Below, in pieces: positions 17,752-35,330 of a stretch of 39,045 bases of DNA (its first letter is position 1; each line of letters begins with the position of its first letter). The stretch comes from a virus. Position numbers and translations under genes: made by a program. The notes below the pieces were generated by a model, which worked only from the letters and a program-made list of their open reading frames with translations, was not told where the DNA came from and searched no databases. The stretch lies in the IMG/VR virus record IMGVR_UViG_3300027842_000001, positions 1 to 39,045 of that record; one strand, 5' to 3'.

Positions 17752-18327
17752 GTGTATTTGACGCCGCTGTACGCCAATCCGCGACGGCGCAGACGCCGCT
17801 ATTACCGGCGCTATCGTCGCAACCCCGAAGGGTTCGGCTTCGACGACAACCCGCGGCGGCGGCGCCGCTACTACTACCGACGACGGCGCAACCCGCAGCT
17901 TTTGGGCATCGACATGGGCGACGCCGGCGGCACGATCCTGGGCGCGATCGGCACGGCCTACGCGGATTCCGCGCTGGTCGGCCCGCTGGTCGGCCGCATG
18001 CTCGGCGCCGCGGGCAGCTTCAAGCCGGCCGTACAGGCCGTGCTCTCGGCCTTCGCGGTGCATTGGGGCTTGCGACGGCTCAACCCCGGTTGGGCTCGCG
18101 CGACCTCGGGCGGCGGCGCGCTGTACGCCGTGGTGGGCATCGCCAACACGATCGCCCCCGGCCTGGTGCCAATCACCATTGGCGTGCCGACGCAGCTCGC
18201 CGGGCTGCGCCCACTCGCCGCGTTGCAACCTCCCGCACCCGCGGCAGCAGCAGGCGGCGGCACGCAGGCGGTCAACACCGCCTCACCGACGACGGGTCTA
18301 CGGATCATGTCGCGGAACGGGCTGTAA
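17752..18327 (+). CDS. Arg-rich (NPRRRR/RRNP) N-terminus fused to a Gly/Ala-rich hydrophobic domain; probable virion membrane or core protein
   Basis: GTG 17752 with GGAGG 10 nt upstream; first gene of the plus-strand arm. Confidence 0.65.
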   Translation: MYLTPLYANPRRRRRRYYRRYRRNPEGFGFDDNPRRRRRYYYRRRRNPQLLGIDMGDAGGTILGAIGTAYADSALVGPLVGRMLGAAGSFKPAVQAVLSAFAVHWGLRRLNPGWARATSGGGALYAVVGIANTIAPGLVPITIGVPTQLAGLRPLAALQPPAPAAAAGGGTQAVNTASPTTGLRIMSRNGL

Positions 18328-18337
18328 GGGGGGTCCC

Positions 18338-19369
18338 GTGGCAGTACGAACAGTCCGAAGCGTCGCGGTAACCGACGTCTACAACTCGGGCGGCGGCATC
18401 GCTCACGAGCTCTCACCGCTGCCATTCGCAACCACGCGGATCGACTGGCAGATCGAGGCCAACCTCACCACCAGCGCCTCACCAGGCACGTCTCAGGATT
18501 GGCTCTGGCGGCTTATCAATGCGCTGTCGCTGAGCTCACCGCTCGGCAACCATCTCACCCTCGGCGACTTGCGCCCGCTGCACTTCGAAAACCGCCTGCG
18601 GTGGGGCGGCCAGTTCACCACCCCCGCGGCACCCGGCGCCTCGGCAACGGGCGTCGTGAAACACGCGATTTTGCGTTTCGATTGCGGCGTCAACCCGCTT
18701 GACCCGTGGGACCTCACCGGCGGCCTGCCGGCGCGGCTCGGCAATCTGTCGATGGCTGGCGGGTGGGCCGCGGCGACACAGCTCGGCTCGGGCTACACCG
18801 TCAACGCGGGCACGCTCCTGCGGACCAAGCTCTACGGCGTGCTGCCCGAGATGGACGGCGAGGCGATCCCGCGCGCCATTCCGGTGATGCAGACGTACCA
18901 GCCGCAACCCTCGAGCAACTCGGCGTCACTCGGCACGAGCTGGAACTTCCCGAAGGGCCATTTCCTGCACAGCATCGTCGTGATGCCGGCCGCGGGCGTG
19001 CGCCCCGCGGACAATCGCTCGGATACGGCGCTGCAAGACATTGGCATCGGCCTGCCCGTCGCGGGCAACCGCCAGCCGTACTACGACACGTGGTACTCGT
19101 TCAAGCAAGAGCAGCGCATCGTGTCGGTGGCGGAGGACGACGGCAACACCTTCGGCGTGCCGACGGTGGCGGCTGAGGGCGACGTCGGCGTAGGCATGCT
19201 GGCCGTCGCGCGACTGGCCGCGGGCGGAAATCCGCTCTACGGCATCGACGACCGCAACGCCGGCGAGGGCGACACGCAATTGCTCTTTGGCGTGAACAAC
19301 AACAGCCAGCTTTCGGTGTGGCTGCTCACACGCCACTACGACCTCAACCCCGCGGCAGGAGGCAGCTAA
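18338..19369 (+). CDS. Virion structural protein, candidate major capsid protein (343 aa)
   Basis: GTG 18338 after AAGGGGGG. Large, beta-rich-looking, low in charged runs; position at the head of the structural arm. Fold not determinable by eye. Confidence 0.55.
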   Translation: MAVRTVRSVAVTDVYNSGGGIAHELSPLPFATTRIDWQIEANLTTSASPGTSQDWLWRLINALSLSSPLGNHLTLGDLRPLHFENRLRWGGQFTTPAAPGASATGVVKHAILRFDCGVNPLDPWDLTGGLPARLGNLSMAGGWAAATQLGSGYTVNAGTLLRTKLYGVLPEMDGEAIPRAIPVMQTYQPQPSSNSASLGTSWNFPKGHFLHSIVVMPAAGVRPADNRSDTALQDIGIGLPVAGNRQPYYDTWYSFKQEQRIVSVAEDDGNTFGVPTVAAEGDVGVGMLAVARLAAGGNPLYGIDDRNAGEGDTQLLFGVNNNSQLSVWLLTRHYDLNPAAGGS

Positions 19370-19373
19370 AGCG

Positions 19374-19469: not shown

Positions 19470-19472
19470 GCG

Positions 19473-20306
19473 GTGGCGACGGGCGATCGACCACGCGCGC
19501 CGGATGGGCGCCGCGGCGGGCCTATCCCTGTCGGTGAACCTGCCGCGGAGGACCGCGACCAGGTGGCCGAGCTGGCCAGGCAGGCGGCCGAGCGCCGCCA
19601 GCGCGAGCTCGAAGAGCAGCAGGCCGCGGCCGAACCCGCGGGCGTGCCGCCGAGTGACGACCAGCGCCAGGCGATCGACGCGCTACGCGATCGCTCGGCC
19701 GAGCTGCGCGCACCAGCAGCTCGAGCGCTGCGCCGCCAGCCGGTCGCGATTGGCACGGTGTACGACGACGAGCGCGAGGACGTCGAGGACCTGCACGCGG
19801 ACGCCCGCGAGGCACGCCTCGACGAGCTCAAAGAGCGCGGCATCGTCGACCCCGCGCTCGAGCACGAATCGGCCGGCTTCGATCCCGAGCTGCCAGGCCT
19901 GCCCGGGCACGAGCTGTACGGCGTCTTTACGTGTCCGAATTGCGGAGCGCCTGTCGAACGGGCCTTCCCCGGCTACGTCGATTGGGACCTCGCCTCGCGC
20001 GACCTGGTCTGCCACCAGTGCGGCGGCCTGGTCAAACGTGGCGGCGCCGCGGCCGAAACGGAAGCCGAAGCCGAGCCCGAGACTGTGCAGACGTCTGCAC
20101 AGACGGCACAGAGCGCACAGACAGGCGAGGCGCTGCCTACCGGCGAACCTGGCACGTACAACCCGCCGCCGCTGAGCGCCGACGAACGCGCCGAGCTCGA
20201 GCAGCTCCGCCGCGAGCGTGCCGAACGTGAGGCGGCGGCCAGCTCGCCACCGCCACCCGAGCCAGCCGCGGAGCAGCAAACAACCGAAGAGCCGCCGAGC
20301 GGGTAG
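19473..20306 (+). CDS. Acidic coiled-coil protein with central zinc ribbon
   Basis: CPNCG...CHQCG; contains palindrome 20084-20101 plus a 9-bp tandem extension. Confidence 0.6.
   Translation: MATGDRPRAPDGRRGGPIPVGEPAAEDRDQVAELARQAAERRQRELEEQQAAAEPAGVPPSDDQRQAIDALRDRSAELRAPAARALRRQPVAIGTVYDDEREDVEDLHADAREARLDELKERGIVDPALEHESAGFDPELPGLPGHELYGVFTCPNCGAPVERAFPGYVDWDLASRDLVCHQCGGLVKRGGAAAETEAEAEPETVQTSAQTAQSAQTGEALPTGEPGTYNPPPLSADERAELEQLRRERAEREAAASSPPPPEPAAEQQTTEEPPSG
20084..20101. repeat. 18-bp palindrome, copy 2
   Basis: Exact; read as VQTSAQ; followed by GCACAGA x3 with 9-bp period (20097, 20106, 20115). Confidence 0.95.
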
Positions 20307-20315
20307 CGGGCCGCG

Positions 20316-21257
20316 GTGACGCAGCCAATAACGCCCGTACCGGGCACGCGGGACGAGCCCGCCTACGTTCTGCTCGACAAGGGCGACGTAGTGCGGGTGA
20401 TGAACCCGCAGAACCCGACCCCGGACACGAAGGGCGAGCCGCTCAACACCCGCGGCTATAACTCGCTGATAGTCGACCTGAACCCGGACCAAACGGCCGG
20501 GCCGACCTCAGTAACGGTGCTCGGCGCGCCAACGCCGGGCGGCCCGTGGCTCCAGGAAGTCGACCCGCAGGCCTTCCAGTCCGGCGTGTCCACTCAGAAG
20601 CGCTTTGTTGTTACGGGCATCTCGACGTACAACGCGGTCGCGCTAACCGCCCCGGTCGGCTGGACGGTCTGGTTTACGCCGTTCAACGCGGCATCGCAAA
20701 CCAACGTCCAGATCACCGGCACCACAACACAGAACCTCGCGCAGTACGGCGGCGTGGCGGTCGGGCCGTCGAACCCGCTCGACACACGGCCCAACGGCCC
20801 GGTCGACGTTTCTGACCGCGCGGCGCGGCTGCTCGGCGTCATTGCGTCGATTACGAACACGGTCCCCGACGACGTCATCGACCGCGCGGCGCGGCTGCTC
20901 GGCATCGCCTCGCTGGCTAAAAGCACGTGGAGCCAGGTCGGCACCAGCGCGGCCAACACCGCGCAGACGGTGACTCAGGCCGCGGCCGGTGCGGGCGTGC
21001 GCAACCTGGTAACGGGCCTGACGGTGAGCTGGTCGGGCGGCGCCCCGGCGGCCGGCACGAACGTGCAGGTCAAAGACGGCTCGACCGTCATATGGGACGA
21101 GTATCTCGGCCAGGCCGGCGGCACGCAGGGCTATGCGGATTTCGAATTTACGGCGCCGCTGCAAGGCACGGCCAACACCGCGTTATCGGTGACCATCGCC
21201 GCCGCGGGCGCGGGCGTGACCACCAAAGTGTCGGTACAGGGGCAAACGGGAGCGTAG
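20316..21257 (+). CDS. Virion structural protein (313 aa), candidate vertex/spike component
   Basis: Track ORF, Thr/Gly/Val-rich beta-type composition; internal 24-bp exact repeat encoding DRAARLLG. Confidence 0.65.
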   Translation: MTQPITPVPGTRDEPAYVLLDKGDVVRVMNPQNPTPDTKGEPLNTRGYNSLIVDLNPDQTAGPTSVTVLGAPTPGGPWLQEVDPQAFQSGVSTQKRFVVTGISTYNAVALTAPVGWTVWFTPFNAASQTNVQITGTTTQNLAQYGGVAVGPSNPLDTRPNGPVDVSDRAARLLGVIASITNTVPDDVIDRAARLLGIASLAKSTWSQVGTSAANTAQTVTQAAAGAGVRNLVTGLTVSWSGGAPAAGTNVQVKDGSTVIWDEYLGQAGGTQGYADFEFTAPLQGTANTALSVTIAAAGAGVTTKVSVQGQTGA

Positions 21258-21265
21258 GAGCAAAG

Positions 21266-21676
21266 ATGGCCAATCTCGACGTCGTCGACCGCATCGAAAA
21301 TGCCGACACCGGCACGCTCACGCTGGTGGTCAAAGACCGCGACAACGCCGAGGACCTCGGCGCGTACTACCACTACGCGGCCGTTCCACCAGCTCACGCA
21401 AACGTGAAACCCGACCAGTGGGCCGAACAGGTCGCCGCGCATGCGCTGGCGCTCGAGGCACGAGCTCGCGGCATCGAGCCACCCGCCCGCGCGCATCCCG
21501 AACCCGGCCAGCTCGGCGCCGCGCCCGCGGGCGAGCAGCTCGCCGACGAGGACCAGGCCGAGCTCGAGCAGCTCCGCGCGGCGCGTGCTTCGGCCGACCA
21601 GGTGGCGCGCGATCGCGCCGAGCTCGAGCAGCTCCGCGCCGAGCGCGCGGCGCACCAGGAGCAGCCGACGGCGTGA
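21266..21676 (+). CDS. Hypothetical protein (136 aa) with coiled-coil tail
   Basis: ATG 21266 with AGGAG 5 nt upstream; two AELEQLR repeats. Confidence 0.7.
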   Translation: MANLDVVDRIENADTGTLTLVVKDRDNAEDLGAYYHYAAVPPAHANVKPDQWAEQVAAHALALEARARGIEPPARAHPEPGQLGAAPAGEQLADEDQAELEQLRAARASADQVARDRAELEQLRAERAAHQEQPTA

Positions 21677-23475
21677 CGATGCTCGCGGGGCCGCAAGGTG
21701 GCGGGCCGCCACCGCCCGCGGCCAACACCGTAACGCTCGGGATCTTTCGCGCCGAGGACTACGGCGCGCACAGCATCCAGGCGGGCGCTACCGACGCCTC
21801 GGGAGGTATCAACATCGCGGCCAGCATCGCCGCGGCGCAGGGCGGCGGCCTGGTGATGCTCGACCCGGGCCTCACGTATCCGGTGCGGCGCACGGTGACG
21901 CTCCCCGCGAATGTCGAGCTCGCGATCCCGACGGGCACGGTGCTGCAAGCCGCGGCCGGCCTGGTGGGCGACGTCGTCACGGCGACCAATGCGGCGGGCG
22001 TCCGAATTTCGGGCGGCGGCACGATCGACGCCAACCGCGCCATAGGCACCACCGGCAACGGCGTCACGCTCACCGGCTGCACGGAGCCACAGGTCGAAGA
22101 GATCGCGATTATCAACGCCTGGCAGGATGACGTCGCGCTGGTCAACTGCGTTCGCCCGGTGCTCGACGTGTTTGTCGGCGCCTCGGGCCGCCACGGTCTG
22201 TATCACAGCGGGACCACGTTCGGCCGCGGCCAGGTCACCGCTCGAGACAACGGCCAGCGCATCGCGGGCCACGGCGTCGTGTTCGATGCCGCCTCGACTG
22301 ACAACTGCTACGGGCCGCTGGTGTCCACCGACTCGCGCGTCGGCGGCGCCAAAACGCAGCAATACGGCGTGTTCGAAGTACCCGCCTCCGGGTGCGATCG
22401 CAACACGTATGCACCGTCGGCGCTCGGCGGTAACGCCGTCGGCTCGCAATCGCTGGTGGGCGCGAGCTCGGGCCCGGTGGTGATTGCGCCGAACTCGATC
22501 AGCGCCGGCATGCTGGCCAACGGATCGGTAGGCGACGTCGCGATCGCCGCGGCGGGCCTGTCGAACTCGTCTCTAAACGCGACGGTCGCTCGAGCGAACC
22601 AGCTCATAAACGGCAATTTCCAGGTGTGGCAGCGCGGCACCGGCCCATTCAGCGCTAATGCCGCATACGGCCCCGACCGCTGGCAGATCGGGCTCGCTGG
22701 CAGCGACGCAATCACCGTTTCACGCGACACCACGCACGTTGACGTCGGAGCGACCTATGCGTGCCACGTGACATTCACGCTCGGCACGGGCGGCGGCGCG
22801 AGCGGCCTGTTCCAGTACCTCAAGGCGGGCGACGGCTACGCGCTGCCAGGCGAGCCATTCGCGGCGTCGCTGCGCGTGTATTGCGACACAGCCAACGCGG
22901 TACGCCTCTCGCTCACGTCGGACGGCACCGGCGGCGCGCCGGTGTATTCGGCGTTCAACAACGTCACGAACGGCTGGCAGACGCTCACGGTCGCCATTCC
23001 CGCGCTTCCCGCCAACGTGGGGCAACTGCAACTCTCGATCTACTTCGCGGCCTCGTGCAATGCGTGGTTCAACCATGCCTGCGTGGTGCAGGGCACCGTC
23101 GCCGCTAACGACGTGCCGCTGACACCCGCCGAGGACCTCGCGCGGTGTCTGCGCTATTACCAGCGCTTCGGCCCGAGCGCGCAGGTGTTTGCAGCAGGCC
23201 AGGCCTACAACACCAGCGGCGGCGCGATCCCGTTCCCACTCGTCGCGCCGATGGGCGGGAACCCCACGCTGACCGTATCGGCGCTCAGCGATGTCGGGTT
23301 GACCAATGCCGCGGGGAGTGGCGTCGCGTGTACCTCGCTCAGCATCGACGTGCCCCACAACTGGCACCCGCGCCTCAACGCCGGCCTCGGGAGCGCGCCG
23401 CTGGTGGCGGGCAACGCGACCCAACTCTGCTACATGTCGTCGAGCGTGTGGATCGCTTTCGAGTGGAATCCATGA
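21673..23475 (+). CDS. Receptor-binding protein: pectate-lyase-like beta-helix domain plus C-terminal fibre-type domain
   Basis: GTG 21673 overlaps the upstream TGA. N-terminal FRAEDYGA...GATDASGGINIAASIAAAQGGGLVMLDPG and Gly/Asn/Val rungs; C-terminal NGNFQVWQRGT...DRWQ motif, common in phage fibre tips. Confidence 0.8.
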   Translation: MTMLAGPQGGGPPPPAANTVTLGIFRAEDYGAHSIQAGATDASGGINIAASIAAAQGGGLVMLDPGLTYPVRRTVTLPANVELAIPTGTVLQAAAGLVGDVVTATNAAGVRISGGGTIDANRAIGTTGNGVTLTGCTEPQVEEIAIINAWQDDVALVNCVRPVLDVFVGASGRHGLYHSGTTFGRGQVTARDNGQRIAGHGVVFDAASTDNCYGPLVSTDSRVGGAKTQQYGVFEVPASGCDRNTYAPSALGGNAVGSQSLVGASSGPVVIAPNSISAGMLANGSVGDVAIAAAGLSNSSLNATVARANQLINGNFQVWQRGTGPFSANAAYGPDRWQIGLAGSDAITVSRDTTHVDVGATYACHVTFTLGTGGGASGLFQYLKAGDGYALPGEPFAASLRVYCDTANAVRLSLTSDGTGGAPVYSAFNNVTNGWQTLTVAIPALPANVGQLQLSIYFAASCNAWFNHACVVQGTVAANDVPLTPAEDLARCLRYYQRFGPSAQVFAAGQAYNTSGGAIPFPLVAPMGGNPTLTVSALSDVGLTNAAGSGVACTSLSIDVPHNWHPRLNAGLGSAPLVAGNATQLCYMSSSVWIAFEWNP

Positions 23476-23804
23476 CCGTCATTCCGACCGTCAACGCTGG
23501 CGCTGTCTCGATCACGTGTGGCAACGGCCACACGAACCCGCTCGCGATCAGCGCGATTACTCGGCCGCCCGCGGGCCTCGGCCCGCCGTTCGCGGTGCTG
23601 ACCGTTACGTGCCCGACGTGTGGCGAGTCGAGCTCGCATCCGGTGTCCGGCGGCGCCGACCAGGCGAGCGTACAGACGTTGTTTGTAACGGTTGTGGCGG
23701 CGAACGGCTGCCCGTGCGGCGCGCTCACCGCGGGCAAAGCCGCCGCGCTGGTGCGCTCTCATTTGCGATCGCACGCACAGCAGCTCGGGGGCACCTTCCC
23801 GTGA
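23472..23804 (+). CDS. Hypothetical Cys-containing protein (110 aa)
   Basis: ATGA overlap; CGNGH...CPTCG...CPCG. Confidence 0.6.
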   Translation: MTVIPTVNAGAVSITCGNGHTNPLAISAITRPPAGLGPPFAVLTVTCPTCGESSSHPVSGGADQASVQTLFVTVVAANGCPCGALTAGKAAALVRSHLRSHAQQLGGTFP

Positions 23805-24022
23805 GCTTTCAGGTCTGCTACGAAAACGACAACCGCGGCGTCGTCGCGTGGCAGTCGCCCGACTTCGGCGGCGCGGACATGGGCGCCGGCTACACCGTGG
23901 CCACGATCAACGACGACACGCTGTACGCCTGGCTCAACGCCAACGTCGGTTGGCCCCCCTACGCGGTGCTCAACGCCGACGGCCAGCACTTCACGCTCGC
24001 GCAGACGGTGGCCGGCTGGTGA
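23801..24022 (+). CDS. Hypothetical protein (73 aa)
   Basis: GTGA overlaps at both ends; balanced composition. Confidence 0.6.
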   Translation: MSFQVCYENDNRGVVAWQSPDFGGADMGAGYTVATINDDTLYAWLNANVGWPPYAVLNADGQHFTLAQTVAGW

Positions 24023-24594
24023 ACATTCAGGACGTCTACGACCAGGCCGCCAGCGTGGCACAGCAGAGCGGCGTCGATCCGTCGATCATCGCCACGATCG
24101 CCAGCACCGAATCGAACCTCGCGCTCGCCCCGCCGTTTACGCTCGGCATCACCACGCAGGCGAGCCGCGGCGGCGCGGGCAGCTCGGGCCAGACGCTCAG
24201 CTCGGGCTCGCCGTATGCCGGCACCAGCCAACCCGCGGCGTTTTGGGCCTACAACGACGGCGCCGAGGCGGCGATCGCTTTCGCGCAGTACATCGCGGCG
24301 TATCAGTCGGAGCTCGCGCCGCTGCTCAGCCAGGCCTCCGCGTTTTTCGATCCGTCGGGGCCAATCATCCACTCGAACTACTACGTCCCAACACCAGGCG
24401 GGACCTCGGCGGCCGATTACTACGGCCATTGGCAAGCCGTCGCGGCCTCTCTCGGGGGCGGGGGAGTGGCGATCGCGACGCAACCGCTCGGCTCGACGCG
24501 GGCAGGCCTGCCAACGTTCCTCGAAAACTGGCCGGTGCCGGTCCTGGTCGGCCTCGCCGCGGTGCTCACGTTATGGGCCTTGGGGGAGCTCTAA
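24019..24594 (+). CDS. Lytic transglycosylase (SLT-like) with C-terminal membrane anchor
   Basis: IASTESN (catalytic Glu-Ser), LGITTQ, FWAYNDGAEAA (AYNxG) in canonical order; C-terminal VPVLVGLAAVLTLWALG. Confidence 0.75.
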   Translation: MNIQDVYDQAASVAQQSGVDPSIIATIASTESNLALAPPFTLGITTQASRGGAGSSGQTLSSGSPYAGTSQPAAFWAYNDGAEAAIAFAQYIAAYQSELAPLLSQASAFFDPSGPIIHSNYYVPTPGGTSAADYYGHWQAVAASLGGGGVAIATQPLGSTRAGLPTFLENWPVPVLVGLAAVLTLWALGEL

Positions 24595-28468: not shown

Positions 28469-28783
28469 ATGCCTGCGTTGCTGGCGCTCATTCCGGAGAT
28501 CATCGACGCGCTGGCGGCGTTCATCGGCGCGACCTGGTGGCAACTGCCGGTGCTGGTAACGCTCTTCAAAGTCGGCGCGCAAGTGACGGAGCCGATTCCG
28601 CAGCCAGCCGGCCAACAATCGCCGGTGCAACAGGCCGCCAGCGGCGCCGCACAGGCCGCCTCGGGCGTCGGCTCCGCGGTCGGTGGAACGGCTCAGGCGG
28701 TCGGCGGCTTCGGCCAGTTTCTCTCACAAAATCCCTGGCTGGTGGTCGGCGGCATCGTCGCCATATTCGTACTTCGGAGGTAA
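28469..28783 (+). CDS. Membrane protein (104 aa, two TM segments)
   Basis: ATG directly after the upstream TAA; hydrophobic N- and C-terminal segments. Confidence 0.65.
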   Translation: MPALLALIPEIIDALAAFIGATWWQLPVLVTLFKVGAQVTEPIPQPAGQQSPVQQAASGAAQAASGVGSAVGGTAQAVGGFGQFLSQNPWLVVGGIVAIFVLRR

Positions 28784-28786
28784 CGG

Positions 28787-28803
28787 TTTGAATGGCTATT
28801 AGC
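28787..28803 (+). repeat. AT-rich 17-mer TTTGAATGGCTATTAGC
   Basis: Read directly; contains ATG 28792. Confidence 0.85.
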
Positions 28804-29025
28804 GCTGCGCCCGCGCTCGAGCCGCTCCGACCGAAGGGGCTCGAGCTGACACACGTGTCGATCGTTCCCGAGCAGGGCGGCACCGGCCGTTTTTTGGTGA
28901 ATCGTCACTTTGTTGTGCGCGAGGCCGAAAGTAAGTACCCGCTCCAGGAGTCATGGGAGGGCCGCGGCTTCGGCGAGGCGCTCGAGCTGGTCCAGAAAAT
29001 CATGGCGATGGAGGGTCTGCGGTGA
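28792..29025 (+). CDS. Hypothetical protein (77 aa)
   Basis: ATG lies inside AT-rich 17-mer copy 28787-28803. Confidence 0.6.
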   Translation: MAISAAPALEPLRPKGLELTHVSIVPEQGGTGRFLVNRHFVVREAESKYPLQESWEGRGFGEALELVQKIMAMEGLR

Positions 29026-29240
29026 GCTCGTTGCCTCCGCCGGCCATGCCGCCAGGGCTATCCGCGGCGGACTACGCCGCAGCGCAGCAGCGAAATCAGG
29101 TGATGCTCGCGGGCGTGCTCGGCGGTGGTGCATTCATCGGCTACGAGCTGCTCGGCGGCATGCAGGGGGCGCTCATTGGCGCGGCTGGCGCGTACATCGG
29201 TCTAAAGCTGCTCGGCGATGCGATGTGGGGCAACGGCTGA
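29022..29240 (+). CDS. Gly-rich membrane protein (72 aa)
   Basis: GTG 29022 overlaps the upstream TGA; VMLAGVLGGGAFIGYELLGG... Confidence 0.55.
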   Translation: MSSLPPPAMPPGLSAADYAAAQQRNQVMLAGVLGGGAFIGYELLGGMQGALIGAAGAYIGLKLLGDAMWGNG

Positions 29241-29244
29241 ACTT

Positions 29245-30228
29245 GTGGGCCTGTTCGACTTCCTGCGGCCGAAGCGTCGACGACGGCGCCGAGCTGTGCA
29301 GACGTCTGCACAACGGCCGCGCTATCGACCTGGTGAACGCGCCAAGCGCTACCTCGAGCGGGTGGCCGAGCTCGAGGACCTCGAGCAGCGGCGACGTGCC
29401 CAAAAACGCACTACGCGGCCCGCTGGACCACGCGCCACACGCGACGACGATCCGACGGTCGAGATTCCGAAGAGCGTCCAGCGCGAAGCCGAGCGCCGAT
29501 TTCAGGCACGCCAGCGGGCCGAGCGCGAGGCGGCCGAGAAACGGCGCCGCCAGGAGATCCGCGAGCGCGAGCGGGCCGCGCGCGGTGAGGCGCGCATGAT
29601 GGCCAGGGCCGAGAAGGCGCGAGCTCGCGCGATCGACGCCTACATGGCGAACGGCGCCACCCGCGCCGAGGCCGAGCAGCTCTACGACCGCGAGCCGGAT
29701 TGGTCAACCTACGACTTCAACCCGCGGCGCCGCGGTGTACGGCATCGCAGCTGGCCACGTCGCCGTACAAACCCGCTGCCGCCCGTGGTGGGCGAGATCG
29801 CTAAGGACGTGCTGAAAGGTGGCCTAATCGCCGCGGCACAGGAAGAGGCCAAAGCCCGATGGCGCGCAGCTCGACGACGTCGCAATCCGGCGCGCCTCGA
29901 GCCGAACCACCCGGACGAAAAACTGCGGGACATGAGCCGTCGGTTTCACGGCCGACCCGATCAAATCCTGCACCTTGACGCGGACCAGCGCCGCCCGCCG
30001 CCGCAGCACGTCGTACTGATCGGCCACGAGCGGGCGACGGTCTATCGCACGCCGCGGAGCTCCGAGCGCTCAGGCGCCGATTGGGAGCACGAGGCGGGCG
30101 ATCGCGGCATGTTGCGGCGCAACGCCAGCGGGCGCCGGATCCTGGTCGCCGACGAGCGCGGCCGGGTGTATCTGCTACAGGGCAGCTCGTCGATGCGATT
30201 CGACCCCGACCAGGGGCTCGTCGGGTGA
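29245..30228 (+). CDS. Arg-rich RRNP-motif protein
   Basis: GTG 29245; palindrome 29295-29312 sits at codons 17-23. An alternative start near GTG 29361 would make the palindrome intergenic. Confidence 0.6.
   Translation: MGLFDFLRPKRRRRRRAVQTSAQRPRYRPGERAKRYLERVAELEDLEQRRRAQKRTTRPAGPRATRDDDPTVEIPKSVQREAERRFQARQRAEREAAEKRRRQEIRERERAARGEARMMARAEKARARAIDAYMANGATRAEAEQLYDREPDWSTYDFNPRRRGVRHRSWPRRRTNPLPPVVGEIAKDVLKGGLIAAAQEEAKARWRAARRRRNPARLEPNHPDEKLRDMSRRFHGRPDQILHLDADQRRPPPQHVVLIGHERATVYRTPRSSERSGADWEHEAGDRGMLRRNASGRRILVADERGRVYLLQGSSSMRFDPDQGLVG
29295..29312. repeat. 18-bp palindrome, copy 4
   Basis: Exact; 55 bp after the stop at 29240; read as VQTSAQ if the gene starts at 29245. Confidence 0.95.
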
Positions 30229-30244: not shown

Positions 30245-30406
30245 ATGACATGGACACTTGAAGCCGCGGGGCACAAAGACGCCGACTATGACGAGGGCTA
30301 CGCCGAAGTCAAAGAGGCGCTGCGCGAGCTAGTGCGCAAACTCCGCGAAGCCGGCCACACCGTCAGCGTGCACACCGTCAACGACCAGGACGTCGAGGCG
30401 CAGTAG
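30245..30406 (+). CDS. Small acidic protein (53 aa, below the track cutoff)
   Basis: AAAGGAGAGG upstream of ATG 30245; hand translation MTWTLEAAGHKDADYDEGYAEVKEALRELVRKLREAGHTVSVHTVNDQDVEAQ. Confidence 0.5.
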   Translation: MTWTLEAAGHKDADYDEGYAEVKEALRELVRKLREAGHTVSVHTVNDQDVEAQ

Positions 30407-30417: not shown

Positions 30418-31560
30418 ATGGCCAGCGCTGCCGAGATGCTCGACGAGATCCGCCGCCACTTCGCGGCGCACCCGTCGGGCATGGTGCAAGTGACGACCAT
30501 GACGCGGGCGACGCGCTACCGCTCGCCTGAGTGGTTCCGCGTCTCGAGCAAGGGCAACCTTCAAGTACGCCGCGGCCGAACGTGGGAGCAGATCTCGATG
30601 GGGGGTACGCCACTGGTCGGTATCCGCCTCTTCAACCCGCGCAAAAAGAAGCGCCGCGGGGCTGGCGAGTGGCAGCCGGACCTCTTCGGAGGCCGCGGCA
30701 TCGAGCGCCCCGACGCATTCGCGCCGGGCCTCAGTCGCGCCGAGCAGCTCGAGCTCGCCCGCGAAGAGATGCGCGCCACCGGCTCGCGCGACCTGTTCGA
30801 CTTCATGGCCGACCAGCCACCGCGGCGCAATCCGCGCTATGTGCTGCGCCTCGACGAGGATAACTACTGGCGCGCGTGGGACACGAAGCACAAGCGCTAC
30901 TCCCCTCACGTGCTGCAAATCGTGAGGCGTAAGGCATTCCGCCAGGTGAAGGAGCTCAACGCCGACGCCGAGCGCCCGCCTGAGCGCCGCTGGCTCGAGC
31001 ACAACCCGCGGCGGGTGACCTATCGGCAGGTGGTCGAGGCGTGGGACCGCGGCAACCGCGGCCGGGCGCGCCAGCTCGCGGAGCGGGTGACCGATCCCGC
31101 CGAGCGGCGGCTCGCCGAGCGGTTTCTCGAGTCACGGCGCGCCAACCCTGCGGAGCTCGAGCGCAACCCGCGGCCGAGCGACTACTCGCGCGAATCGGCC
31201 GAGCAACTGCGGCGGCGCCTCTACTTCTGGCGGCCACAAATCCGCGCGTACCGGGCCTCGGGTGACCCCGACGAGCAACTCGAGTCGATGGCGCGCACAG
31301 TAGAGCGCGAGCTCGCCCGTCGACGACGCAGCCGTCGGCCCAACCCCGCGGACACGCCCGAAATGCGCTACCAGCGGGCCATCGGCCACGGTGAGCGATT
31401 GGCGACGGCTCGGAAGGCTGCCGCGAACCCGGGCCGCGCTACGGGGCGCATGGCGCCGAATTGCCCCATGTGCGGCGCGCTGGTGCGCCTGCCGAATCCG
31501 ATCCCGCCGCGGGTGACATGCCACAACTGCGGCACTCCGTCGCTGGTGCGCCGTCCTTGA
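30418..31560 (+). CDS. Arg-rich RRNP-motif protein with C-terminal zinc ribbon
   Basis: Six or more Arg-flanked NP motifs; CPMCG...CHNCG. Confidence 0.7.
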   Translation: MASAAEMLDEIRRHFAAHPSGMVQVTTMTRATRYRSPEWFRVSSKGNLQVRRGRTWEQISMGGTPLVGIRLFNPRKKKRRGAGEWQPDLFGGRGIERPDAFAPGLSRAEQLELAREEMRATGSRDLFDFMADQPPRRNPRYVLRLDEDNYWRAWDTKHKRYSPHVLQIVRRKAFRQVKELNADAERPPERRWLEHNPRRVTYRQVVEAWDRGNRGRARQLAERVTDPAERRLAERFLESRRANPAELERNPRPSDYSRESAEQLRRRLYFWRPQIRAYRASGDPDEQLESMARTVERELARRRRSRRPNPADTPEMRYQRAIGHGERLATARKAAANPGRATGRMAPNCPMCGALVRLPNPIPPRVTCHNCGTPSLVRRP

Positions 31561-31604: not shown

Positions 31605-31748
31605 ATGTCGCGCTATCTGACGTTTTCCCGATTGCTGGTGCTGGCGGCGCTCATAGTCGCCGTGCTGGCGGCGTTTCACGTGCCCGCGCCCGTCGACCTG
31701 GTGGCCTCAGCGCTGGCGCTGTATTTCGCCTCGCTCCTGGTGCCGTAA
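31605..31748 (+). CDS. Tiny membrane protein (47 aa, two TM segments)
   Basis: GGGAGGGAG upstream of ATG 31605; MSRYLTFSRLLVLAALIVAVLAAF... Confidence 0.5.
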   Translation: MSRYLTFSRLLVLAALIVAVLAAFHVPAPVDLVASALALYFASLLVP

Positions 31749-31756: not shown

Positions 31757-32119
31757 ATGTACCACGGTTTGACGATCGGCGCGTTTTTGGGGCTCTTGTG
31801 TGGCTTGTCCCCAATGCGACAAGTGAGGCGCAACCCCGACACCGCGACCGTGCTCCTGGTCGGCCTCGGCCTGCTGCTGCTGCTCCGATCGCGCGGCGCC
31901 CGACTGTTCGGCGCCTCGAGCAGCCCGGCGCCGCTCTTACCGCCGAGCTACTCAGGCTGGCCGAGTGTATTCCCGCAGATGGCCACCGAAGGCGCCGCGT
32001 GCACGACCAGCAACGGCCAGCCGGGTACGTGGCATCGCGTCGAGTTTGGCGCGGTGCAGGTTGGCGGCATTCCGCAGCAATGGATTTGCTGGCCGCGGGG
32101 GGTCCCGATCACCGTATGA
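31757..32119 (+). CDS. Membrane protein (120 aa)
   Basis: Two hydrophobic segments separated by RQVRRNP. Confidence 0.55.
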   Translation: MYHGLTIGAFLGLLCGLSPMRQVRRNPDTATVLLVGLGLLLLLRSRGARLFGASSSPAPLLPPSYSGWPSVFPQMATEGAACTTSNGQPGTWHRVEFGAVQVGGIPQQWICWPRGVPITV

Positions 32120-33081
32120 CCGACCCGGTGCGGCTGCTCGAGCTCGGCGCCGACATGCTGCGCTCGCGGCGCGGCGACCAGGACGCCCGCGGGCGACTGA
32201 TGCGCAACGCGCTACCGCTGGCGGCCGATTATCTGATACGCCCCGGCGCAGGGCGGCTACTCGAGCGCGGCCTCGAGACATTGCGCGACGTCGCCGCGGA
32301 GGAAGGCTGGCGGCTGCCGGGTGGGCTCGCGACCATCGGCGAGGGCGACCCGCTGCCGAATTACGAGCCGTTCGTCGAGCGCCTGGTCGCCGCCCCGTTC
32401 GGCTTCTACACGATCATGGGCGAGCCAGGCACGGGTAAAACCGTGCTCGCGTTGCGGCTGGCGCAGCGCATCGCCGAAGAGCACGGCTACCAGGTTGTCT
32501 CAGTCGGCGGCATGCACCCCGACGACCGGCGCAAGTGGAAAACCGACGAGTGGATCCAGCTCGAGGCGCCCGGCGCGTTCGTCAAAGCGATGGACGCCGT
32601 AGCCGAAACGATGGTGACCGCGCGTGTCCACCGCCACCGCCGCGAGCTCACCGGGCGGGTGATTCTGCTCGACGACGCGATTATGACCGCGCACATTTCC
32701 GCCAAACGTTTCAACCAGTCGCTTACACAGGCCTGGTCGATCTATCGGCATCTCGATTGGGTGGTGCTGCTCACTGCGCGCATGTTCCGCGCGCTAACGA
32801 CCATTGCCGAGAACGCCGACGCGCGATTCTTGAAACGGCCCGACTGGCAGCAACTCTCGAGCGAGCGCGACAAAGCGCGCTTTTGGTGGCGCGACGCCGA
32901 GGCAGCCTACAAGGGGCTGCGCCACTCTGCCGACTGGCAGACCCGCCCACGTGAGCGGGAATGGATCTACGTCCAGGCGCCCGGGCTGCGCTACACGGGC
33001 CTGATGCCGTACAGCACGCCGGAGCCACCGACGACGACGCTCGTCCTCGATCCCGTGCCACCCGATCGGGAGACGCTATGA
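32116..33081 (+). CDS. P-loop ATPase, candidate genome-packaging ATPase (FtsK/HerA-like or Zot-like)
   Basis: ATGA overlap. Walker A MGEPGTGKT, Walker B RVILLDDA. Flanked by small membrane proteins. Confidence 0.75.
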   Translation: MTDPVRLLELGADMLRSRRGDQDARGRLMRNALPLAADYLIRPGAGRLLERGLETLRDVAAEEGWRLPGGLATIGEGDPLPNYEPFVERLVAAPFGFYTIMGEPGTGKTVLALRLAQRIAEEHGYQVVSVGGMHPDDRRKWKTDEWIQLEAPGAFVKAMDAVAETMVTARVHRHRRELTGRVILLDDAIMTAHISAKRFNQSLTQAWSIYRHLDWVVLLTARMFRALTTIAENADARFLKRPDWQQLSSERDKARFWWRDAEAAYKGLRHSADWQTRPREREWIYVQAPGLRYTGLMPYSTPEPPTTTLVLDPVPPDRETL

Positions 33082-34289
33082 GCCCCGCGGCGCTGCTGGT
33101 GCTGGTCGCGCTCGGGTACTGGTACTTGTCGACGCGGCGTACCCGCCGCAGGCCTGCACGCAACCCGTACAACCCGCGACGGCGAAAAGGCGATCGCTGC
33201 TTTGCCTGCGGTCGGCCGCTCCGCACGGGTGACGTCCGCTGGCTCATGCCGACCGGGTCGGGGCCGCGGGTGGTGTTGTGCCAGTCGTGCGCCGACGAGC
33301 TCGTCGAGCGGCGCGAGGCACGCGGCGAAAGCGGGCCGGCACTGCGCCGACTCTCGAACCCGCGACGTCGTCGACCTGGTGCTGCTGGCCAGCTCGCGCT
33401 CCCCGAGACGCCGGCGGCCTACCCGGTGGTTCACGTGGCGGGCGGCGGCAAGCTGCCCAACCGCAAAAGGCAGCCGTTTTGGGTGTTCGCGCAATGGGCC
33501 GGCGTGAGCGCGAATGACTCGCGCTGGTTTACGCACGATCCGGTCGGCCGCGCTTTCTCGAGCTACGCCGAGGCGGCCGACGTCGCCCGCGACTTCGCAC
33601 GGCGCCAGGGCGGCGTGTTCGAGCCGTCGCGCGAGGCGCGCCACGAGCTGCTCAGGAACCGCAACCCGCGGCGCTTGTGCCGGTGCGGATCCGGGGCCCC
33701 GTGCAAAAACCCGTATACGCAGGCCTGCGCGCTGCCCGGTGGCCACGTCTACGATTTCACCGCGGGCGGGCGCTGTCAGTGTTGCGGACGCATGGCGCCG
33801 CGGCGCACCGTCGAGCTCGAGTCGCGAGCTGGTGAGCATGCGCGCTACGGCCGAACGTGCGCGGCGCGGTCGATCGGCACTACCAAACTGCGGACCAATC
33901 AGCTCGAGCACATGGAGCGCGAGGCGGAGCACCGATCGGCCCGCGAGGCGCACTACCGCGGCGCTGGTCGGCAGGCCTCGGGCATCGTGCGCCCGACATT
34001 CGCGCGGGGCTGGTCGGAGGCCGAAATCGTGGAGCTCGCGCGGCGGGTCGGGGAATCGCCATTCGAGCCTCACTGGTGGCTGTCGCAAACGGCAAACCTG
34101 GTGCCGGCGCATTACGAGCTGACGCCGCAGGGACGCCGCTACGTGCCAGCCACGGGCGAGTACCGGCGCTTTGTGCTCGAGGGTGGCCAGCGGACCAAAC
34201 GGCGCCGCGGCGCTGGCAGCTCGGCGCGATCGGCGCGGCCAGCTCGAGCTCGAGCCTACGCGCGACCTGGTGATGACCTCCCGTGGTGA
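33078..34289 (+). CDS. N-terminally anchored Arg-rich RRNP-motif protein with CxxC pairs
   Basis: ATGA overlap; LLVLVALGYWYL TM; ARNPYNPRRRKG, SNPRRRRPG, NRNPRRLCRCG. Confidence 0.7.
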   Translation: MSPAALLVLVALGYWYLSTRRTRRRPARNPYNPRRRKGDRCFACGRPLRTGDVRWLMPTGSGPRVVLCQSCADELVERREARGESGPALRRLSNPRRRRPGAAGQLALPETPAAYPVVHVAGGGKLPNRKRQPFWVFAQWAGVSANDSRWFTHDPVGRAFSSYAEAADVARDFARRQGGVFEPSREARHELLRNRNPRRLCRCGSGAPCKNPYTQACALPGGHVYDFTAGGRCQCCGRMAPRRTVELESRAGEHARYGRTCAARSIGTTKLRTNQLEHMEREAEHRSAREAHYRGAGRQASGIVRPTFARGWSEAEIVELARRVGESPFEPHWWLSQTANLVPAHYELTPQGRRYVPATGEYRRFVLEGGQRTKRRRGAGSSARSARPARARAYARPGDDLPW

Positions 34290-34292
34290 CCG

Positions 34293-35330
34293 ATGCCTGA
34301 GCGCTACTGGCTGACGTTCACGACGCGCCACCGCCACGGTCGGCCGACGCAAGAGCCGGTGTACTACCAGCGCGAGGGCGATCGCTGGCGGCTGTACTTC
34401 GGCAAGAGCGGGCGGCGCCGCGCCGTCGGCACCGAATCGGACGCCGCGGTGCGCTGGCAGGTCGACCTCGCCAAATCGGAGGGGCGCTTTGTACGGCACG
34501 AGCCCGACCAGGGCCGCATGTTCAACCCGCTAGTGCGCGGCTACTCCCGCGGGGCGATCGCCGCCAACATTCGGCGCGAGATCCACGCCGGCCGCGACCA
34601 GGACCAGGCCGTCGCGATCGCGCTGGCCACCGCCCGCCGCGCCTACCGCTCACGCCACCCGCGCGGCCGACTCCCCGCTCAGCTTCGGAGGAATCCGCCC
34701 ATGCACAACCCGCTTTATGGCGCCGAGGCCGCAAAGGTGATGCGCCGAATGGACCAGGCGCAGCGCGAGCTCGACCTCGCCTCACGCGAAGCCCGCGGGT
34801 CAGACGATCCCGAGGTACGGCACTACGCGCGCAAACGACGGGACCGGCTCATACGCGAGCTGGCCCGCTTGAGTCGCCGCCTGCATTGGGAGAACCCCGC
34901 GCGACGTCGCAACCCGGCGGAGATCGCCAAGCTACAGGCCGCCATGCTGCGCGAGGAAGCCCGCTACGACCGCACAGCGGACCTCTACCGCTACGACGAC
35001 CGCACGAGCGCCAGGGTGCGCGTGATGAAGGCGGCCGGCCAGCGCGATCGCGCGCAGAAAGCCGTTTACGACGCAATGCGCCGAGGCGCCAACCCCCGCC
35101 CGACCCGCGGCCCGCTCGACCGCCTCGAGGCCTACAGCGTGCGCTCGATGCGGCGCGCCGCTCGCGGAATCAGCGAGGTTCCCGAGAGGCATCGCGGCAT
35201 CTCCATGCGGGCGCTGGCGCGTCGGCGTCGACGACGCAACCCCAACCGTGGCGAGTGGATAGACCTCCTGGTGCCGCTGGCGTTCCTGGTGCTGCTGATT
35301 CGCGGCCGAACGATTCAAGTCGGCGCCTGA
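34293..35330 (+). CDS. Arg-rich RRNP-motif protein with C-terminal TM
   Basis: LRRNP, ARRRNP, RRRRRRNP; C-terminal WIDLLVPLAFLVLLI. Confidence 0.7.
   Translation: MPERYWLTFTTRHRHGRPTQEPVYYQREGDRWRLYFGKSGRRRAVGTESDAAVRWQVDLAKSEGRFVRHEPDQGRMFNPLVRGYSRGAIAANIRREIHAGRDQDQAVAIALATARRAYRSRHPRGRLPAQLRRNPPMHNPLYGAEAAKVMRRMDQAQRELDLASREARGSDDPEVRHYARKRRDRLIRELARLSRRLHWENPARRRNPAEIAKLQAAMLREEARYDRTADLYRYDDRTSARVRVMKAAGQRDRAQKAVYDAMRRGANPRPTRGPLDRLEAYSVRSMRRAARGISEVPERHRGISMRALARRRRRRNPNRGEWIDLLVPLAFLVLLIRGRTIQVGA

Follow-up and report, generated by a model that had tools for sequence, protein, structure and literature searches.

The closest described relatives of the virus analyzed here belong to the STIV group, which unites the Turriviridae (STIV1/2) with bacterial STIV-group (pro)viruses and in which the genes for the major capsid protein (MCP) and the ATPase are not adjacent (Yutin et al. 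2018; PMC5894146). STIV genomes are 16-18 kb and those of the metagenomic elements of the group 10-15 kb; circular genomes and tyrosine integrases are already present in this group. In the Tectiviridae (PRD1, Bam35, Wip1, GC1, Toil, WheeHeim), the genome is linear, measures 15-18 kb, carries terminal proteins and encodes a protein-primed DNA polymerase, and the structural operon combines a penton and spike gene cluster with genes for a wall hydrolase of the virion type and for many small membrane proteins. The PM2 group (Corticoviridae and Autolykiviridae, Vinavirales) consists of tailless bacterial viruses with an internal membrane, genomes of about 10 kb (circular dsDNA in PM2) and temperate relatives that carry integrases.

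The window, that is, the whole stretch of 39,045 nucleotides under analysis, ends in an exact direct repeat of 127 bp, an assembly overlap (positions 1-127 are identical to 38919-39045). Such overlapping ends indicate a circular or terminally redundant molecule of 38,918 unique bp, and the window represents a complete genome, circular as originally predicted; a 39,176-bp contig of a relative shows the same gene order with another starting point. At 38.9 kb, the genome is indeed 2-4 times larger than those of the known bacterial relatives. Third-position GC gene calling yields 24 closely spaced, co-oriented plus-strand genes in the arm at 17752-35330, with overlapping stop and start codons in several of them (for example, 21673/21676, 24019/24022, 32116/32119 and 33078/33081), so the tight packing described in the original prediction is borne out. 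This arm is very likely the virion-morphogenesis module of a tailless icosahedral bacterial dsDNA virus of the double jelly-roll lineage, closest to the STIV group, with a Tectiliviricetes-like placement in Bamfordvirae.

The 343-aa protein encoded at 18338-19369, already suspected to form the capsid, is the MCP, with a predicted double jelly-roll rather than HK97 fold. The best Foldseek match of its AlphaFold (AF2) model (pLDDT 75.5, pTM 0.79) in the PDB is the STIV MCP (2bbd; E 2.4e-15, TM 0.65/0.68), with PRD1 P3 (E ~1e-12) and PBCV-1 Vp54 also among the top matches; the BFVD matches are the MCPs of Wip1, STIV and GC1, and PM2-type MCPs are absent from the top structural matches. Sequence homology at the profile level also supports the double jelly-roll identity: the STIV coat protein is the only match of the capsid family profile (A3) among PDB sequences (E 6.9e-6). 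The MCP family comprises 158 representative clusters.

This fold bears directly on the earlier suggestion that the genome might belong to a phage-plasmid hybrid or to an extremely divergent tailed phage of the HK97 lineage, in either case with hallmark genes that go unrecognized. When essentially all arm proteins were scanned against Pfam and PHROGs, no matches to terminase, portal, HK97 capsid, head protease or tape measure proteins emerged, in line with the original reading of the arm; the structure comparisons covered the MCP and the ATPase. The sole profile matches in the arm are a P-loop (32116-33081), PHROGs in the 600-aa protein discussed below, and small PHROGs of unknown function. Most arm proteins have no detectable family in Pfam or PHROGs, so that missing profile matches alone do not exclude a divergent tailed phage. 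However, conservation among the structural proteins is highest for a double jelly-roll capsid protein that has structural matches at E 1e-15, no terminase, portal or protease family is found among the arm proteins, and no ORF is longer than 600 aa, hence there is no tape measure. The tailed-phage and hybrid alternatives are thus unsupported and effectively refuted, with a negligible residual probability.

The genes around the MCP include several candidates for minor virion components. Directly upstream, the small protein at 17752-18327 combines an Arg/Tyr-rich N-terminus that carries five RRNP/NPRR motifs with a Gly/Ala-rich, hydrophobic remainder. Its homologues are located directly upstream of the MCP in L001, L007, L008 and L029, and also in distant relatives (L012, L017, L018 and L024), where the 'RRNP-E/Q-x-LG' element is still kept; this is a candidate internal-membrane or DNA-contacting minor virion protein. 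In the distant relatives, the small basic protein, the MCP and a 130-aa domain form a conserved triad. In the window, the protein encoded at 20316-21257 consists of an N-terminal domain of ~130 aa that is conserved beside the MCP and a C-terminal extension that carries two copies of a DRAARLLG element and is beta-rich at its end. Counterparts of the N-terminal domain, in proteins of 125-265 aa, are encoded right downstream of the MCP in eight relatives (L010, L012, L014, L015, L017, L018, L020 and L021). This conserved position makes a vertex (penton/spike) protein the more likely assignment, rather than a second capsid protein, with the N-terminal domain as the candidate penton and the extension as the candidate spike base. 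The hhalign comparisons with PRD1 P31 and STIV A223 were not significant. Between the MCP and this gene lies that of an acidic coiled-coil-like protein with a CxxC...CxxC zinc ribbon (19473-20306, starting at 19473 or 19563), which has weak zinc-ribbon Pfam matches only. L001 conserves it, L029 and L030 do so in part, and it is missing from this place in the distant relatives, where the 20316-like domain directly follows the MCP; it could be an assembly or scaffold factor.

Further downstream, a small acidic coiled-coil protein with ELEQLR repeats (21266-21676), which includes a tandem 30-nt repeat at 21557-21648, has no family match and a homologue in L001 only. It is followed by the 600-aa protein (21673-23475), encoded by the largest ORF of the genome, as noticed previously, and with homologues in L001, L029, L030 and L011. 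Residues 302-513 match phrog_28838 of unknown function (E 1.4e-13), and residues 27-137 weakly match the tail-spike phrog_2234 (E 0.029), making this a candidate spike or receptor-binding protein. The beta-helix proposed earlier lacks confirmation in the window protein itself; the L030 counterpart has a Pect-lyase_RHGA_epim domain (Pfam).

The next gene (24019-24594) encodes a candidate cell-wall hydrolase with an SLT-like 'ASTES' motif and a C-terminal transmembrane (TM) anchor that is 67% identical to the anchor of the SLT_3 protein of L001. At this position, the relatives encode an SLT or SLT_3 domain with the same C-terminal anchor; the N-terminal domain of the window protein has no homology to these domains, and the protein has no Pfam or PHROGs profile match. 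The membrane anchor of the predicted lytic transglycosylase thus stands, whereas the transglycosylase assignment lacks a profile match. Then come four Ser/Thr/Pro-rich proteins with terminal hydrophobic anchors (24748-25854, 25851-26897, 26904-27680 and 27684-28208), candidate virion membrane or surface proteins. Three of the four share a 'QDPxQGGTNxYGPGD' domain, and those starting at 24748, 26904 and 27684 are paralogues because all match the same ORFs in L001, L006, L029 and L030. The protein at 25851 contains a TM-like segment, and the other three have weaker hydrophobic stretches. Four small proteins (28205-28468, 28469-28783, 28792-29025 and 29022-29240), conserved in L001 and without family matches, follow; three of them have TM-like segments.

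The extent of membrane-protein enrichment depends on the predictor. Under a crude Kyte-Doolittle filter (17-residue window >= 1.5, no charged core), by which TM-like segments were called, 9 of the 24 arm proteins are flagged vs 4 of 29 elsewhere in the genome, and a tenth, at 34293, passes a 19-residue hydrophobicity window; a simpler 15-residue score shows no enrichment in the arm. Hence the membrane-protein-rich arm holds as a modest enrichment with crude predictors, and three of the twelve such proteins listed originally (24748, 26904 and 27684) have only short or weak hydrophobic stretches.

Toward the end of the arm, a P-loop ATPase (32116-33081; Walker A GEPGTGKT, Walker B VILLDDA and an invariant RH pair, R211 H212) is encoded immediately downstream of, and translationally coupled to, two tiny membrane proteins of 47 and 120 aa (31605-31748 and 31757-32119), each with two TM-like segments, an arrangement recognized in the original prediction. 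Small proteins of 58-96 aa occupy the position upstream of the ATPase in L006, L029 and L030. By analogy, and on the basis of the PRD1 annotation, the tiny proteins can be likened to PRD1 P20/P22 and are candidate packaging-vertex membrane proteins. The ATPase itself is highly divergent. In Pfam, it shows only generic P-loop similarity, below threshold (best AAA_28, nSTAND3 and AAA_22), and no sequence profile links it to any packaging ATPase. Its AF2 model is poor (pLDDT 52); the top Foldseek match is STIV B204 (E 1.8e-3). The hhalign score against STIV1 B164 is 24.3, compared with 12.6 +/- 2.4 for shuffles, 0 of 160 of which reach it, and B164 alone aligns both at Walker A and at the region after Walker B, in a collinear alignment that continues from Walker B through the RH pair; the PRD1 ATPase P9 aligns only at Walker A. 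The resemblance to STIV B204, a packaging ATPase, is specific but weak, and the evidence for membership in the FtsK-HerA/A32 packaging clade, a point raised in the original prediction, is weak as well.

We consider this protein a candidate genome-packaging ATPase. A double jelly-roll virus could instead use it as an assembly chaperone or a membrane-remodelling or defence NTPase, with the genome entering the particle otherwise, for example, by way of another enzyme or, as has been proposed for PM2, by co-assembly. Such a non-motor role, which agrees with the generic P-loop similarity in every profile search, seems unlikely. More distant relatives show no homologue of the ATPase within 10 kb of the MCP and instead encode an 830-990-aa protein, with TM-like segments in two of three cases and a Walker A motif in the L009 copy. 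Against this, the place of the ATPase in the structural operon, behind the two tiny membrane proteins, is conserved, the top structural match and the collinear alignment both point to STIV, and the genome encodes no other candidate packaging enzyme, the IstB-like protein being located in the replication arm.

The candidate packaging ATPase is flanked by unusual Arg-rich proteins. About 27 RRRNP/NPRRR (RRNP/NPRR) motifs are spread over seven arm proteins vs about 4 elsewhere in the genome; their codons are varied, and the motifs are conserved in the same proteins of the relatives. Four of the seven contain 17-22% arginine, and two of these four are membrane-anchored. Upstream of the ATPase, the proteins at 29218-30228 (21.7% Arg) and 30418-31560 (18.7% Arg, with a C-terminal zinc ribbon), which together carry nine motifs and are separated by the gene for a 53-aa acidic protein (30245-30406), are candidate DNA-condensing core proteins; L006, L029, L030 and L034 encode Arg-rich, motif-bearing homologues of the former shortly before the ATPase block. 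Downstream of the ATPase, the proteins at 33078-34289 (N-terminal TM segment, Cys clusters, 16.9% Arg) and 34293-35330 (C-terminal TM segment, 21.4% Arg; residues 79-121 match phrog_2423 of unknown function, E 6e-15) together carry another nine motifs, have homologues after the ATPase in L030 and L006, and are candidate membrane-DNA links. Adenoviruses, with genomes of roughly 26-48 kb, condense their DNA with several arginine-rich core proteins (VII, V and mu). They are viruses of eukaryotes without an internal membrane; their linear genomes bear terminal proteins, and their packaging ATPase is of the ABC type (PMC8328091, Table 1). The analogy, which extends to the double jelly-roll capsid and the genome size class, is purely functional: the role of the adenovirus core proteins is possibly filled here by the RRNP-motif proteins, and we claim no sequence relationship.

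In close relatives, the module is colinear: small basic protein, capsid protein, penton/spike candidate, spike and membrane-anchored wall hydrolase, then membrane proteins, Arg-rich protein, tiny membrane proteins and the P-loop ATPase, the latter colinear with the MCP module in all of them. The MCP-to-ATPase module is found on single contigs in L029 (816-10038) and in L030, where the locus ends within the MCP gene; L006 has the ATPase-proximal part, and L001 has the MCP-proximal part on a contig of 39,176 bp, the length also of the contig that carries its ATPase homologue, P0161. Apart from the arm, the genome encodes both recombinases of the original prediction, a short tyrosine recombinase (4850-5512, minus strand; Pfam Phage_integrase, E 1e-21) that is conserved clade-wide, with homologues in L006, L029 and L034 (E 1e-85 to 2e-31), and a large serine recombinase of the integration/excision type that adjoins the arm (35417-36862, plus strand; Pfam Resolvase, E 4.7e-19, Recombinase and Zn_ribbon_recom). 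A DnaC/IstB-like loader in the replication arm, a methylase and an NlpC/P60 peptidoglycan hydrolase are also present. Together with the M23, GH25 and SLT domains of relatives, the latter implies a bacterial host. A search for a prophage copy or host of the virus found none.

Two recombinases, a loader and a methylase would also fit an integrative plasmid or a domesticated or defective element that, like Thermococcus pTN3, keeps the double jelly-roll capsid gene and the ATPase and no longer forms infectious virions, or is transferred in vesicles. The STIV group has been reported to include an integrative plasmid, and MCP contigs lacking a packaging ATPase have been interpreted as likely remnants of prophages (PMC5894146). 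Nevertheless, this scenario appears quite improbable: more than 20 genes make up a colinear structural module that is intact and conserved, with a strong coding signal and 50-86% identity across independent samples; several datasets contain near-identical genome copies in which the ATPase and the genes around it are identical; free circular contigs of ~39 kb were recovered twice; and Pfam and PHROGs scans of the genome found no conjugation or partition genes. The circularity and the recombinase are not anomalous for a virus because both features are already known in the STIV group.

The preferred reading, a double jelly-roll virus, supports the tailless capsid lineage of the original prediction and moves the nearest group from PRD1/PM2 to STIV. 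The STIV capsid protein is both the best structural and the only sequence-profile match of the MCP, and the circular dsDNA genome, tyrosine recombinase, separation of MCP and ATPase, small beta-rich protein beside the MCP, and weak ATPase alignment with B164/B204 are shared; the host with peptidoglycan, the larger genome, the additional serine recombinase and the battery of Arg-rich proteins set the virus apart, and homologues of the STIV turret proteins were not found. With the Tectiviridae, it shares the MCP fold (Wip1 and GC1 being top BFVD matches), the organization of the structural operon and an ATPase flanked by tiny membrane proteins (cf. PRD1 P9 and P20/P22). Unlike tectiviruses, it has a circular genome in which Pfam and PHROGs profile scans reveal no polymerase family. 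Circularity, the bacterial host, and the predicted tailless, membrane-containing virion resemble the PM2 group; in contrast to that group, the genome showed no rolling-circle Rep family.

By analogy with PRD1, PM2 and STIV, the virus probably contains lipid, and MCP trimers would form a pseudo-hexagonal lattice around a lipid vesicle of host origin, in which the many small anchored arm proteins would be embedded. The N-terminal domain of the 20316 protein would close the fivefold vertices, this protein and the 600-aa protein would carry the receptor-binding spike, and the anchored wall hydrolase (24019) would breach the peptidoglycan during entry. A unique vertex for pumping the genome into a preformed particle could consist of the ATPase and the two tiny membrane proteins encoded directly before it. 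The Arg-rich proteins, a lineage-specific addition of putative protamine-like or SPKK-like DNA binders, may condense the viral DNA, neutralizing a genome more than twice the size of those of known bacterial relatives and tethering it to the inner membrane, much as adenovirus core proteins do. The genome of ~39 kb (compared with 7-20 kb in described prokaryotic relatives), the conserved RRRNP/NPRRR proteins and the highly divergent ATPase are the novel features of this virus.

A search of 5.8 billion proteins retrieved just ten close homologues of the 343-aa protein encoded at 18338-19369, and a profile search yielded 158 representative clusters for the family. The AlphaFold (AF2) model of this protein, built on the alignment, is reasonably confident (pLDDT 75.5, pTM 0.79) and consists of two consecutive eight-stranded beta sandwiches. 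In a Foldseek search of the PDB, the STIV coat protein ranked first (E 2.4e-15, TM 0.65-0.68), followed by many chains of P3, the major capsid protein (MCP) of PRD1 and PR772 (E about 1e-12) and, further down, by PBCV-1 (Vp54), iridovirus and virophage capsid proteins; among the predicted viral structures in BFVD, the capsid proteins of Wip1, STIV and GC1 were retrieved. Support independent of structure comes from the comparison of a 56-member family profile with 177,635 PDB sequences, in which the STIV coat protein (3j31, 2bbd) was the sole match (E 6.9e-6, residues 6-272). Thus, 18338-19369 encodes a vertical double jelly-roll MCP of the Bamfordvirae/Tectiliviricetes type that is related in sequence to STIV B345; no HK97 fold turned up in this AlphaFold and Foldseek analysis, which had been suggested along with the original prediction of a PRD1/PM2-type tailless virus.

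Because spurious ORFs are plentiful at the G+C content of ~70% that the window maintains throughout, genes were called by third-position GC. The calls bear out the reading of 17752-35330 as a co-oriented, tightly coupled plus-strand arm: it comprises 24 closely spaced genes, several of them with overlapping stop and start codons, the longest encoding 600 aa. The sole sizeable break in this dense array separates the 600-aa spike gene from the small gene that follows; it spans ~325 nt (23476-23800), lacks a convincing coding frame and may represent an internal promoter or terminator or else an overlooked small gene. When nearly all arm proteins were scanned against Pfam and PHROGs, neither a terminase or portal nor an HK97 capsid, a prohead protease or a tape measure protein was identified, so that the hallmarks of tailed phages are absent from the arm, as had been noticed at the outset. 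The same two databases detected no HK97 capsid, portal and terminase module among the left-arm proteins either, with the proviso that highly divergent folds may escape sequence profiles.

The genome is circular, as the original prediction had it. Bases 1-127 of the window are identical to the final 127, the direct end overlap that assembly of a circular molecule at k = 127 usually leaves, so that 38,918 bp are unique. Other datasets contain this genome too: a Logan assembly, an NCBI MAG that holds a fragment of it, and a JGI metagenome (3300005542), in which its contig measures 39,038 bp. A relative with 80-86% protein identity, on a 39,176-bp JGI contig, starts at a different point but has the same gene order; these copies fit a circular or permuted genome of ~39 kb. 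The left arm, mostly on the minus strand, encodes a short tyrosine recombinase, a DnaC/IstB-like ATPase, an N6/N4 DNA methylase, an NlpC/P60 endopeptidase and an HNH/EndoVII nuclease, whereas a large serine recombinase and then an alpha/beta hydrolase are encoded downstream of the plus-strand arm; the genome therefore carries two recombinases, in agreement with the initial reading. Rfam, tRNA and tandem-repeat scans of the window returned nothing of relevance. A perfect (GCT)x11.7 trinucleotide run at 10296-10330, within the minus-strand ORF 9965-10759, encodes poly-Ala and could be a slippage-prone site.

Relative loci were fetched via the capsid protein, some of them with only 27-30% identity on 35-41-kb contigs (L015, L017, L028) and others on shorter contigs. 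In four close metagenomic relatives (L001, L006, L029, L030), the structural module is conserved and colinear, in whole or in part depending on the locus: a small basic protein, the capsid protein, the vertex protein, the spike and the membrane-anchored wall hydrolase are followed by membrane proteins with the GGTN domain, an Arg-rich protein, tiny proteins and the ATPase. Extra genes within the module, such as 25851, 30418 and 33078, partly account for the larger size of the window genome. The distant relatives keep three genes together, namely those for the 17752-type small protein, with its basic N-terminus and its hydrophobic body rich in Gly and Ala, for the capsid protein and, directly downstream, for a ~130-aa domain that is the counterpart of the N-terminus of the 20316 protein. 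With the double jelly-roll MCP, the conserved colinear module and the absence of tailed-phage hallmarks, the interpretation of the arm as the morphogenesis module of a bacterial double jelly-roll virus without a tail is supported, with an STIV-like capsid protein and an unusually large circular genome.

Distant relatives with 27-30% MCP identity encode a protein of 830-990 aa after the penton-like gene (L009:5578-8424, L015:11588-14554, L017:12342-14825); the copies of L009 and L017, unlike that of L015, have called TM-like segments, and a Walker A motif (GEVGAGKS) is present in that of L009. The MCPs of these three loci have no homologue of the window ATPase within 10 kb, so these relatives may use a different packaging or membrane machine.

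In eight distant loci, the MCP gene is directly followed by the N-terminal ~130-aa domain of the 20316-21257 protein. Neither hhalign comparison with PRD1 P31 and with STIV A223 nor a profile search of the PDB gave a significant match for this domain. By its size, position and conservation, it is the leading candidate for the penton, the single jelly-roll minor capsid protein that viruses of the PRD1-STIV-PM2 kind have at their fivefold vertices. Between this domain and the beta-rich C-terminal part, at residues about 165-200, the protein contains a duplicated DRAARLLG(V/I) element, and a 'QNLAQY.GVAV' segment of this protein recurs in L012 and L017, two distant relatives.

The identification of the 600-aa protein as a beta-helix and of the 24019 product as a lytic transglycosylase gained no backing from Pfam, PHROG or PDB sequence searches with the window proteins; at the matching positions, the relatives carry pectate-lyase-like domains (spike) and SLT or SLT_3 domains (hydrolase), respectively. 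The wall-hydrolase position and its C-terminal membrane anchor are kept in the window (24019-24594) and in the four close relatives (L001:12181-12513, L006:894-1346, L029:4793-5221, L030:6104-6628). The anchor of the 24019 protein (...LWALGEL) is 67% identical to that of L001, whereas the N-terminal catalytic domain shows no homology to the SLT/SLT_3 domains that the relatives carry; the hydrolase domain thus seems to have been exchanged while the anchor was conserved. In the left arm, 13184-13768 on the minus strand encodes the NlpC/P60 endopeptidase, with a C-terminal hydrophobic segment; the place of this gene is taken by that of an M23 peptidase in L001, and L006 and L030 encode GH25 muramidases. 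Lysis enzymes appear to be freely exchanged within this clade.

The arm had also been described as rich in membrane proteins. A crude hydropathy filter called TM-like segments in 9 arm proteins, compared to 4 of the 29 encoded elsewhere, and a 19-residue window added a tenth. This part of the description holds as an approximation: 3 of the 12 proteins originally listed are marginal, and a simpler score, the 15-residue hydropathy maximum, showed no enrichment and was dropped as a test because it could not tell arm proteins from the others. With the TM-like segments and the conserved anchor of the wall hydrolase as indirect support, the virus presumably has an internal lipid membrane that would carry virus-encoded membrane proteins. 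The proteins encoded at 24748-25854, 26904-27680 and 27684-28208 have in common a ~60-aa domain with the signature 'QDPxQGGTNxYGPGD', and two of them also a 'SxxSSIGHMPN' segment followed by a hydrophobic anchor. They form a paralogous family with no database annotation that is represented in L001, L006, L029 and L030 as well.

The product of 32116-33081 contains clear Walker A and Walker B motifs, and its gene follows those of two tiny membrane proteins, both as originally described; this position in the structural operon is fixed, and the arrangement is reminiscent of P9 with P20/P22 in PRD1. Classification by sequence was uninformative: Pfam gave only generic, sub-threshold P-loop matches, searches with PDB sequence profiles (A2, A5) and PRD1 P9 aligned the P-loop alone and matched no packaging ATPase, and an HMM search of the PDB with the ATPase family at E up to 10 matched no chain of B204, the packaging ATPase of STIV. 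The AlphaFold model is poor (pLDDT 52); with this low-confidence model, Foldseek placed STIV B204 at the top of 350,000 chains (E 1.8e-3), with several B204 entries in the top 20. The hhalign comparison of the ATPase family with STIV1 B164 covered 63 columns with a score of 24.3, at a marginal pairwise E of 0.012 and a probability below 5%; shuffled controls scored 12.6 +/- 2.4, and none of the 160 reached 24.3. The aligned columns run from Walker B through the invariant Arg-His pair of the family to a strand-Thr-x-Arg and an 'AD..F' segment. Among the P-loop proteins tested, B164 alone aligns collinearly both at Walker A and in the region after Walker B, whereas PRD1 P9 and the IstB-like protein align with the window ATPase at Walker A only. 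A better template profile could not be built because tblastn with STIV B164 matched STIV1 and STIV2 only. Given the Foldseek rank of B204, the B164 alignment with its shuffled controls and the place in the operon, the 32116 protein is most likely a diverged B204-like packaging ATPase and may belong to the FtsK-HerA superfamily (A32/P9/B204 clade).

Seven arm proteins (17752-18327, 26904-27680, 29218-30228, 30418-31560, 31757-32119, 33078-34289 and 34293-35330) carry 27 copies of an RRNP motif, that is, Asn-Pro flanked by runs of Arg (RRRRNP, NPRRRR), and about four weak instances were detected elsewhere in the genome. A repeat at the DNA level was rejected as the source of the motif because the Arg, Asn and Pro codons vary, which indicates selection at the protein level. 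The motif recurs in the corresponding proteins of the four close relatives, and the distant relatives keep a single copy in the small pre-capsid protein. In four of the motif-bearing proteins, Arg makes up 17-22% of the residues; two of these four are membrane-anchored, and two contain zinc-ribbon-like Cys pairs. SPKK and SPRK are minor-groove-binding units of histones and protamines. Asn-Pro followed by basic residues would form a similar turn, and the proteins would compact the large genome and tether it to the inner membrane. By this analogy, a DNA-condensing role of the RRNP proteins seems plausible; the motif may be an SPKK-like DNA-binding turn or else a sorting or processing signal. Two of these proteins also contain small conserved domains that match phage protein families of unknown function, at residues 79-121 of 34293-35330 (phrog_2423, E 6e-15) and residues 167-213 of 26904-27680 (phrog_13335, E 1e-3).

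Megablast with 24 kb and tblastn with the MCP against 50,697 phage records gave no match, and tblastn with the ATPase gave nothing beyond P-loop matches at chance level (E 0.7 or higher). No relatives were retrieved when GTDB genomes and IMG/VR were pattern-scanned with the alignment of close MCPs. The ATPase alignment matched short MAG contigs in GTDB that were binned to Chloroflexi, Victivallales and Faecousia; given the small contigs and the disagreement among the bins, these matches were rejected as host evidence. The serine integrase and the DnaC-like protein were uninformative as host hints, as they share only 24-34% identity with actinophage and proteobacterial phage proteins. Neither the GTDB scans with the MCP and ATPase alignments nor the comparisons of the integrase and the DnaC-like protein revealed a prophage copy or a reliable bin assignment. 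The encoded peptidoglycan hydrolases, NlpC/P60 in the window and M23, GH25 and SLT in the relatives, point to a bacterial host, and the 70% G+C together with the soil and groundwater sources suggests a high-G+C bacterium.

A virus of this kind is already known, and the MCP places the window genome nearest to the Belfryvirales-like STIV group. Six groups of double jelly-roll viruses have been described in prokaryotes, and that of STIV has bacterial members as well as circular genomes and tyrosine integrases; the sizes are 10-15 kb overall and 7-11 kb for the stand-alone genomes of the Odin group, and the metagenomic elements span 7-15 kb (Yutin et al. 2018, PMC5894146). The known prokaryotic Tectiliviricetes have been described as 'small viruses' (Woo et al. 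2021, PMC8328091). Unlike these viruses, the window genome is ~39 kb, as apparently are the distant relatives on 35-41-kb contigs, and it further differs in the strongly diverged ATPase, to which the published characterization of STIV-group ATPases as 'highly similar to STIV' does not apply, the additional serine recombinase and the Arg-rich motif proteins. Also in contrast to the known groups, it is wholly invisible to Pfam, PHROGs and the pattern-based IMG/VR scan. Tectiviridae are set apart by a linear genome with inverted terminal repeats, a terminal protein and a protein-primed family B DNA polymerase, a combination that the circular window genome does not display; Pfam and PHROGs scans of the window detected no DNA polymerase family but a DnaC/IstB-like loader instead. 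A limited literature search found no paper on such genomes, and contigs of this lineage are not recorded in the supplements of Yutin et al. 2018.

Tentatively, and with somewhat less than even confidence, we propose that the window genome and its relatives on 35-41 kb contigs represent an undescribed bacterial double jelly-roll lineage of family level or higher that broke the ~20-kb prokaryotic size ceiling by acquiring DNA-condensing, protamine-like RRRNP/NPRRR core proteins, some with an anchor in the inner membrane, and with a strongly diverged B204-like ATPase driving packaging. The eukaryotic relatives of the prokaryotic double jelly-roll viruses (adenoviruses, polintons and giant viruses) are much larger. 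If the proposal is true, the core proteins would be a prokaryotic counterpart of those of adenoviruses. Standard viral marker searches miss the lineage entirely, and in view of the empty Pfam, PHROGs and IMG/VR capsid-alignment scans, soil and groundwater viromes may hide more of it. A bacterial lineage of ~39 kb, with its conserved structural module, extra recombinases and seemingly dedicated DNA-condensing proteins, would show that enlargement of the capsid and the genome in this viral kingdom is not limited to eukaryotic hosts, and charge neutralisation by membrane-tethered Arg-rich core proteins offers a testable idea of how such enlargement could be achieved.
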